Origin: Candidatus Micrarchaeota archaeon
GTDB taxonomy: Archaea > Micrarchaeota > Micrarchaeia > Norongarragalinales > SBBD01
Reading direction: 5' to 3'
Length of the DNA: 20,694 nt
Assembly (NCBI GenBank): GCA_043813365.1
Contig: JBDRLB010000076.1
Location: 1-20,694, forward strand
Under the pieces are notes generated by a model. It was not told where the DNA came from. It saw only the letters and a program-made list of their open reading frames with translations, and made no database searches. Shown here in pieces: positions 18,211-18,727 of the stretch (its first letter is position 1; each line of letters begins with the position of its first letter). Both the position numbers and the translations under genes were made by a program.

Positions 18211-18277
18211 GAAAACATCCTCAAAGGTAATTTACCGCTATATTAATAACCCTGTTTTCCCAAAAGCGTAGGTTTAT

Positions 18278-18637
18278 GCGGAGGTCGCCTAGTGGCTATG
18301 GCGGCAAGCCTCTTTTTCTTTCACAAAAGAAAAAGACCTTTGGGAGAAAAAGAAAGGTATTTTGATCTGCGAATCAAGAAATTGAGGCACGCAAGCCTGC
18401 TATCTGGAACCGCTGAATTTCCGGTCATTCCGGGATGAAAGCTTTTGTTGAGTAATCGTCGCGCGGGTTCGAACCGACTTGCCCATTTCTTTTTAGAAAA
18501 AAGAAAGCGGCGGTGTCGCCGCTGGAAAGAAAAAAATTACTTTGATTCGCAAATCAAATTCCCTTTTCTTTTGCGGCGCCTTACGCTTTCCTTTTCTGGG
18601 AAAAGAAAAGCAAGGCACGGACATCCCGCCCTCCGCG
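18278..18637 (+). tRNA. tRNA-Ser(GCT) with three introns; predicted exons 18278-18306, 18395-18402, 18440-18473 and 18624-18637
   Basis: Acceptor stem GCGGAGG/CCTCCGC with discriminator G; D arm GCC...GGC; anticodon loop CT-GCT-A|A; long variable arm GTTGA-GTAA-TCGTC; T arm GCGGG-TTCGAA|T-CCCGC. BHB-like geometry at each junction. The mature tRNA is about 85 nt and CCA is not encoded. Confidence 0.85.
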
Positions 18638-18727
18638 CTTTCTTCCTTCATGCCTCCAAAATGCCTACGGGTAGTTTTAAATATCGGCTTAAGGTGTTAT
18701 TATCATCCCTCGAAAGCCGGTGATAAA

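Follow-up and report, generated by a model that had tools for sequence, protein, structure and literature searches.

The stretch of DNA analysed here (hereafter the window) comprises 20,694 nucleotides of contig JBDRLB010000076.1, which belongs to a groundwater Micrarchaeota metagenome-assembled genome (MAG) of 1.34 Mb, 78 contigs and 49% G+C. An A-type ATPase A subunit encoded in the window shares 70–82% identity with its counterparts in Candidatus Micrarchaeota MAGs. Close to the end of the window, on the plus strand at 18278–18637, lies a tRNA-Ser(GCU) gene with three introns and no encoded CCA. Introns 1 and 3 of this gene were found to be made from a repeat family that is dispersed in the genomes of this Micrarchaeota lineage. 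An original prediction, made from the sequence alone, had pointed to a hairpin module common to the two introns and had suggested a non-autonomous repeat of the REP (repetitive extragenic palindrome) or MITE (miniature inverted-repeat transposable element) kind. We regard it as probable, with considerable reserve, that the split gene indeed harbours an intron-forming repeat family of this kind. Throughout, G000 is the genome under study, C numbers are its contigs and L numbers are loci in relatives.

A tRNA-Ser(GCU) gene with three introns

At 18278 the gene opens with seven nucleotides of acceptor strand, followed by a D arm; its other end, at 18637, is formed by a T-stem strand, the matching acceptor strand and the discriminator G. 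Exon 1 (18278–18306) holds the 5' strand of the acceptor stem, the D arm and positions 26–29, and is followed at position 29/30 by intron 1 (18307–18394, 88 nt), the single-unit 'I1' type. Exon 2 (18395–18402) holds positions 30–37 including the anticodon GCT, and intron 2 (18403–18439, 37 nt) occupies the canonical site 37/38. Exon 3 (18440–18473) covers positions 38–59, with the variable arm and the 5' strand of the T stem; intron 3 (18474–18623, 150 nt, 'I3' type) interrupts the T loop at 59/60, and exon 4 (18624–18637) supplies T60, the 3' strands of the T and acceptor stems and the discriminator G. In this model intron 1 starts and intron 3 ends exactly at the limits, 18307 and 18623, that had been set for the module.

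When the four exons were joined by these coordinates, ARAGORN recognised a tRNA-Ser(gct) of 85 nt, the cloverleaf being restored by removal of the introns. The exon junctions could be fixed because the orthologue in G009 (locus L012), a genome of the same family and another genus, lacks introns 1 and 3: it contains the canonical intron only and has the same exon sequence. In addition, in a 774-nt metagenome contig of a relative the base equivalent to 18306 runs directly into exon 2 sequence, without intron 1. Contigs from four DNA runs yielded no joints and small pieces only, with this one relative lacking intron 1 and two base variants among the results.

A different gene model, with GCTGA as the 3' strand of the anticodon stem and TCCGG-TCATT-CCGGG as the variable arm, was dropped, since the orthologues have GCTGT and a GATGA-GTAA-TCGTC arm. 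In the window gene, T at 18444 and T at 18448 break the C28:G42 pair of the anticodon stem and one pair of the variable arm. Congeners and one contig of run X1 carry G and A at these sites. An error in the MAG consensus or decay of this copy of the gene would account for the difference.

Neither ARAGORN with default settings nor Rfam at gathering scores gave a tRNA or RNA-family match in the window. A permissive Rfam scan of 18230–18680 returned chance matches only (best 21.8 bits against a cut-off of 70), and Rfam 15, at gathering and permissive thresholds, gave nothing meaningful at the window or at the loci of five relatives. The same holds for much of the genome, in which 39 tRNA genes were curated by combining ARAGORN, the Rfam tRNA model and reading by hand; this manual list is probably incomplete. 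Many of the 39 have two or three introns. With intron lengths up to 300 nt permitted, ARAGORN called 22 of them, 13 with an intron, and the Rfam tRNA model placed 18 over its cut-off. Standard finders thus miss about half of the tRNA genes, and the tRNA complements of such MAGs are therefore badly under-called.

Three hairpins follow one another in intron 1: one of a pyrimidine run and a purine run with an 11-bp stem (18311–18336), a second of CCTTT with AAAGG around a purine-rich loop, present in the centroid fold (18337–18357), and TTTGAT-CTGCGA-ATCAA (18361–18377). A helix of GCCTC (18308–18312) with GAGGC (18384–18388) closes the intron, whose predicted fold has −29.7 kcal/mol (z −2.1). 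In intron 3, a left repeat unit on the plus strand (18476–18538; nhmmer E 1e-13, 62.4 bits with model R1) contains a pyrimidine/purine hairpin (18486–18506) and a GC hairpin with a GCGGCG/CGCCGC stem (18507–18522). It is followed by a central TTTGAT-TCGCAA-ATCAA hairpin (18541–18557) and by a right unit on the minus strand (18564–18616; nhmmer E 6e-7, 59.3 bits with model R1), which includes a third hairpin (18585–18611). All parts listed by the original prediction, the third hairpin and the GCGGCG/CGCCGC stem among them, were thus located where it had put them. A unit profile made without window sequences matched the left unit with E 2e-12 and the right unit with E 3.5e-12. The RNA of intron 3 is predicted to form one long rod, closed by the T stem and tipped by the central hairpin, at −61 kcal/mol (z −4.4).

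The relation between the introns was assessed by local alignment against 1000 dinucleotide shuffles. Aligned in the same orientation, introns 1 and 3 scored 24, a value reached by 110 of the shuffles and hence not significant, whereas intron 1 scored 42 against the reverse complement of intron 3, which only one shuffle reached (z 7.2), in an alignment centred on the purine run and with the TTTGAT hairpin at its core. Intron 3 aligned with its own reverse complement scored 46, reached by none of the 1000 shuffles. A profile of four intron-1-type copies from outside the window, used in a whole-genome search, found intron 1 with E 2e-16 and matched intron 3 only in reverse orientation (18610–18542, E 2.7e-4). 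Since both the shuffle test and the profile match intron 3 in reverse, the inverted arrangement, which the original prediction had mentioned as an option, is the correct one; the likeness in the same orientation, with which it had begun, was not significant. Intron 2 is unrelated to introns 1 and 3 (scores reached by 992 and 831 of the 1000 shuffles) and had no other BLAST match in the genome.

These results show that intron 3 is an inverted doublet of units of about 56 nt around a TTTGAT-N6-ATCAA hairpin, and that intron 1 represents a single unit that has diverged and has short complementary ends closing it. A low-complexity coincidence, to which the same-orientation score taken by itself would point, deserves next to no credence as an account of their resemblance: the inverted alignment was reached by one shuffle in 1000, independent profiles find both introns, and a census yielding dozens of copies in this and related genomes refutes it. 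The common origin that had been proposed for introns 1 and 3 is therefore upheld, both being built from one dispersed family.

A repeat unit inside and outside tRNA genes

Iterated nhmmer searches defined the unit of about 56 nt as GCCTTGCC(CC), a hairpin whose 5' arm consists of pyrimidines rich in T and whose 3' arm consists of purines, a GC-rich hairpin and a terminal AAAGAAA, often followed by the TTTGAT-N6-ATCAA hairpin. The genome contains 31 units, and doublets match the family profile on both strands. Among perfect hairpins genome-wide (39 loci), the pyrimidine-first arrangement outnumbered the purine-first one by 38 to 1. In an alignment of 60 units from several genomes, 94.7% of the hairpin stem cells were paired and seven of the eight stem pairs varied on both sides, figures that come from a model-fitted alignment, which favours pairing. 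The elements share with MITEs terminal inverted repeats, small size, lack of an open reading frame (ORF) and many copies.

A tabulation of intron against intergenic copies, as the original prediction had proposed, showed a strong bias. The curated tRNA genes make up 0.45% of the genome and hold 17 of the 31 units (binomial 3e-32). Another five lie at most 150 nt downstream of tRNA genes, all of them opposite in orientation to the tRNA gene, and nine are found elsewhere, directly behind long ORFs and at distances of 3–8 kb or above from the nearest curated tRNA gene. Units or intron-1-type elements occur in at least 16 of the 39 curated tRNA genes.

Closely similar introns, of both the intron 1 and the intron 3 type, occur in tRNAs of at least two identities within this one genome. 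Intron-3-type doublets or single units are present at 59/60 in tRNAs for Asn (C31), Arg (C62), Leu (C65), Val (C47), Met (C59) and others, and intron 3 itself is 80–84% identical to the 59/60 introns of tRNA-Asn (C31) and of another tRNA (C40), the figure over 140–142 nt being 84%. The intron-1-type subfamily, marked by the GCCTC/GAGGC closure, occupies 37/38 of tRNA-Cys, 53/54 of tRNA-Pro(GGG) and three further tRNA genes, with 84–89% identity between intron 1 and introns in C19 and tRNA-Pro (C43). This tRNA-Pro(GGG) gene (C43:218–441) contains three introns, the T arm alone being interrupted twice, at 53/54 and near 60/61.

Variants were also noted. In four units (C9:4950–5085, C42:33880–34020, C50:12270–12390 and C75:17954–18056) the pyrimidine/purine hairpin is split by a module of about 50 nt with two extra hairpins, which looks like a nested subfamily. 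Intron-1-like hairpin modules at C42:37560–37760 and C45:42800–42870 have no recognisable tRNA around them and may belong to other intron-bearing RNA genes or be orphan copies. Pyrimidine/purine hairpins with common flanks (tgaag...gtt) stand 4–5 nt upstream of tRNA 5' ends at C7:19684–19706, C13:21265–21287 and C65:5728–5750; these may be parts of tRNA promoters rather than the repeat unit.

Filled and empty sites among relatives

Congeners lack the unit at three non-tRNA sites where this genome has one: at the C7 site it is missing from G002, with a 15-nt spacer in its place, and from G005; at the C74 site from G001–G004; and at the C70 site from G001 and G005. A tRNA gene on C46 has no 59/60 intron here and carries a doublet at 59/60 in G001, G003 and G004. 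These comparisons show that the family, concentrated in tRNA genes and found in intergenic spacers as well, is present or absent at orthologous sites of congeners.

The comparison of orthologous tRNA-Ser genes that had been recommended gave a different answer for each intron. Intron 1, absent from G009, is kept in all four congeners read, and intron 3 has a different sequence in G002, G003 and G005. At the loci of these three genomes (L003–L005; G003, G002 and G005, respectively) an unrelated second intron family sits at 59/60, with the start TGACAC, a GGGG...CCCC hairpin and a TTTG..CTGCGAATC.. hairpin of its own, so that the 59/60 intron of tRNA-Ser(GCU) has been replaced within the genus. 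At 29/30 of the same tRNA in G019, of another family of the order (L007), a much longer A/T-rich intron contains several pyrimidine/purine hairpins; model R1 found no unit in the G019 genome.

Further copies, for which the original prediction had asked, were sought with a covariance model built from 25 units. Matches at E ≤ 1e-3 were obtained in 39 of the 67 genomes of the order, leaving 28 with none. An absence of other copies, which the original prediction had named as grounds for its refutation, is contradicted by these matches and by the 31 units of this genome. Each of the six members of the genus has 15–32 copies. In other families some genomes have 8–24 copies and congeners of those genomes none, and in family f2 all seven genomes were without a match. 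The top unit scores in another family are as high as those in this genome. Across 151 genomes sampled evenly from the phylum, matches at E ≤ 1e-4 were seen in 16; strong matches were confined to this order, and weak ones (25–28 bits) occurred in two other families of the class. One unit is nested in another in G057, and truncated copies were also seen.

The placement of units outside tRNA genes bears on the alternative that the unit is a conserved host cis-element (a terminator, a 3'-end stabiliser or a protein-binding hairpin) kept by selection and not mobile, with the intron copies co-opted or regulatory. In five of the nine non-tRNA units of this genome, GCCTTGCC lies exactly 2 nt past the stop codon of a long same-strand ORF, and a sixth overlaps the stop codon by one base; among seven single units read from G002 and G005, two, both of G005, again showed the 2-nt spacing. 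This spacing is the main support for a cis-element, to which can be added the single orientation of all five units downstream of tRNA genes, the T-runs on both hairpin strands with the pyrimidine-first bias given above, and sequences nearly identical across families. The empty orthologous sites carry TAG, and the filled ones TGA-AT or TAA-TT ahead of the unit; two ORF-end copies are preceded by GTTTTGAAT, similar to the T-loop sequence GTTCGAAT. The 2-nt regularity could thus reflect a very specific target, a carried sequence derived from the T loop (GTTCGAAT against GTTTTGAAT) or a function at gene ends. A host function is difficult to reconcile, however, with the 28 genomes of the order that lack a match, including congeners of copy-rich genomes and the whole of f2, or with orthologous congener genes that end without a unit. 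Moreover, T-rich, terminator-like hairpins would be harmful rather than useful in tRNA introns, and copies that are nested or truncated, like duplications of the flank, are what insertions typically produce. On balance we consider a selected cis-element unlikely, though it has to be taken seriously.

Sequences flanking the units were searched for direct repeats, with a maximum score of 11 in 400 random sites as the null. Imperfect repeats scoring 16–27 (18–33 nt) flank units at C42, C74, L134, L135, L142 and L143, and a repeat at L139 scored 13 over 25 nt. In several cases the repeat is a second copy of a tRNA 3' end, located behind an intact tRNA gene, or of a tRNA 5' end, located in front of one, and half-elements with such duplicated ends beside intact tRNA genes were found at C2, C42, C50, L119 of G007, and L134, L139 and L142 (G002). 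At L135 (G002:C5:56389–56948) a single unit stands between 33-nt direct repeats in host sequence that contains no tRNA and no Rfam family.

Duplicated tRNA ends beside intact genes would also be compatible with a spread of introns between tRNA genes through RNA or gene conversion, as proposed for Thermoproteales, the intergenic copies then being debris of decayed tRNA genes or of recombination. One intron type at one position, 59/60, in many tRNAs fits this proposal, as does the T-loop-like GTTTTGAAT before two ORF-end copies. On the other hand, reverse transcriptase (RVT_1) was detected in none of the six genus genomes; the nine units behind long ORFs are kilobases away from curated tRNA genes, and orthologues of the unit-bearing ORFs have empty sites. 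The elements moreover occupy several tRNA positions and, at L135, a non-tRNA context between direct repeats. Such a spread therefore appears to us decidedly unlikely.

Direct repeats of tRNA ends flanking short inserts also recall Caldiarchaeum subterraneum (PMC3293823), after which the units could be modelled as scars of tRNA-targeting integrative plasmids or viruses whose attachment sites carried the intron. A patchy distribution would suit a transmissible agent. The genome has, however, a single tyrosine recombinase match, which is not beside a unit; only about 100 nt separate the duplicates, and many copies stand elsewhere than at tRNA genes. Viral contigs were scanned for two exact words, which gave 14 and 1 loci, and none of the 15 was a unit by model R1. 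An origin as integration scars is thus very unlikely.

Splicing, mobility and the arrival of tRNA introns

The genome encodes, on contig C73, an EndA of 388 aa with two tRNA_int_endo domains (catalytic type), which matches 4fz2_A over its full length (E 2e-128). Structure 4FZ2 is the epsilon2 endonuclease of ARMAN-2 (PMC3488258), and two reports describe the ARMAN-2 enzyme as cleaving bulge-helix-bulge motifs of strict as well as relaxed form, one at 59/60 among them (PMC3239211, PMC3488258). Judged by this sequence match, the endonuclease of the genome is of the ARMAN-2 (epsilon2) type. An RtcB ligase is encoded as well, in fragments. A 719-aa frame (C27:11425–13434), which may hold an intein, contains two N-terminal stretches, and the end of contig C7 supplies the C-terminal part (C7:31021–31758).

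A bulge-helix-bulge motif was drawn by eye for intron 3, with the T stem, a central helix TTCG/CGGA and two 3-nt bulges (AA|C and CA|T), and the same rule can be drawn in C31, C40, C62 and C43. Also by eye, the four nucleotides before the 3' bulge track the T-loop sequence, TTCG occurring with CGGA, CGAA or TGAA and TCCG with TGGA or CGGA.

From these features we propose how insertions of the repeat could survive in tRNA genes. The two arms of the element would pair into the helix on the intron side, and a short repeat of a palindromic target, e.g. TTCGAA of the T loop, would supply the 4-bp central helix; the transcript would therefore carry a bulge-helix-bulge motif, which the broad-specificity epsilon2 endonuclease would cut, with RtcB ligase rejoining the exons. 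Accordingly we infer three things: that the introns are spliced at the RNA level, that the family moves at the DNA level, and that the palindromic build is what renders an insertion spliceable. The family would then be mobile DNA, now or until recently, and a non-autonomous repeat of REP/REPIN or MITE type (REPINs being inverted REP doublets). The nature suggested by the original prediction is in this respect borne out by single units and inverted doublets, copies outside tRNA genes, empty orthologous sites and a patchy distribution. Its alternative, that the introns give rise to functional circular RNAs, might still apply.

Its further suggestion of a linked HUH nuclease was not borne out. 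A single Y1_Tnp ORF, at C8:44–562, has no family hairpins beside it, with only 43 nt of upstream sequence to judge from, and a link to an HUH transposase of the RAYT (REP-associated tyrosine transposase) type was rejected because Y1_Tnp is neither flanked by units nor co-distributed with them. TnpB gave no match over the cut-off.

Several observations weigh against an intron-forming mobile repeat. No autonomous partner was found. Y1_Tnp is present in 9 of the 39 unit-positive and 9 of the 28 unit-negative genomes of the order. Among the six genus genomes, two have Y1_Tnp, three DDE_Tnp_1, one DDE_3, one rve and none RVT_1, no searched transposase family being common to all six, and G002, with 17 units in 7 contigs, has none of these five. 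The only IS4-like gene of the genome under study (C44) has no matching terminal repeats. Evidence of target duplication is irregular: among the 14 single units in this genome only two exceed the null maximum for flank repeats, the repeats that flank some single units are imperfect and of 16–34 nt with no clean target-site duplication of constant length, and short repeats at intron ends are inseparable from the requirement for a splicing motif. Near-identity of units across families could be due to constraint and not transfer, and the seven non-tRNA units placed 2 nt after a stop codon look more like the outcome of a function or a very specific target than of random insertion. As to splicing, the minimum-energy fold of intron 3 pairs CCG with CGG and does not form the central helix drawn by eye, and introns 1 and 2 represent relaxed motifs, since three and two, respectively, of their four central pairs can form.

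Short palindromic units that occur as singles and as inverted doublets folding into long hairpins, mostly intergenic at gene ends and in tens of copies, are known in bacteria as REP and REPIN, with RAYT transposases. The units described here resemble them in being palindromic, in forming singles and inverted doublets and in occurring in intergenic DNA. They differ in that they live in an archaeon, over half of the copies form introns within tRNA genes, and the Y1/HUH gene is neither co-distributed with the units nor found next to them. MITEs, such as the SM elements of Sulfolobus, are small, non-coding elements with terminal inverted repeats, many copies and nested insertions, all of which apply here too; unlike in MITEs, no parent insertion sequence with matching ends and no target duplication of fixed length was found, and single half-elements are common.

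Families of tRNA introns subject to 'transposition' were reportedly described in Thermoproteales by Fujishima et al. in 2010. Similar introns in tRNAs of different identity are common to both cases. In the Micrarchaeota lineage, which has the epsilon2 enzyme, the introns are long (88–150 nt and more), are built from a defined palindromic unit, and that unit also occurs outside tRNA genes, with empty orthologous sites. A review of 2014, as far as its text was available, mentions no non-tRNA copies for Thermoproteales and calls the mechanism of transposition unknown, supposing that it acts at the DNA level (PMC4090602).

ARMAN-2 (Candidatus Micrarchaeum acidiphilum) is closer in phylum, endonuclease type and the unusual positions 53/54 and 59/60. 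Of its tRNAs, 56% are disrupted, with introns at 53/54 and 59/60, and its tRNA-Pro(GGG) has two T-arm introns, as has the C43 gene here (PMC3239211). The introns assayed there measured 13 and 25 nt, however, and the text at hand mentions no repeat family (PMC3239211, PMC3488258). For Caldiarchaeum, work on a population associated the gain of introns with integration of a 1.9-kb element that has repeats of tRNA fragments on either side (PMC3293823). Direct repeats of tRNA fragments flanking an insert beside an intact tRNA gene, and introns gained or lost among close relatives, are likenesses to the present case; the insert there is 1.9 kb long with a recombinase gene, whereas here about 60–100 nt of repeat unit carry no gene. 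A literature search, in which matches were judged by title or opening of the abstract and which did not cover Fujishima et al. 2010 or the ARMAN-2 supplements, returned no description of a repeat family in Micrarchaeota tRNA introns. Families of tRNA introns are known; new here is one assembled from a REP/MITE-like unit that has copies beyond tRNA genes as well.

As to how introns reach archaeal tRNA genes, a survey of Asgard genomes published in 2026 tested copying, mobile elements and reverse transcription and concluded that the route is still open (10.64898/2026.10.13.758758). The repeat family offers a concrete lead: because one and the same unit occurs in introns, beside tRNA genes and in spacers, with filled and empty sites among congeners, the question of arrival becomes directly testable in a few genomes. 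A REPIN-like palindromic repeat may be one such route, a proposal that we put forward tentatively and somewhat short of conviction; it would imply insertions that are born spliceable, colonisation of essential tRNA genes given a broad-specificity endonuclease, horizontal spread between families of Micrarchaeota and, possibly, a mechanism encoded by the host. If this is true, the element could colonise essential tRNA genes wherever a broad-specificity endonuclease exists, since each insertion would be spliceable from the start.

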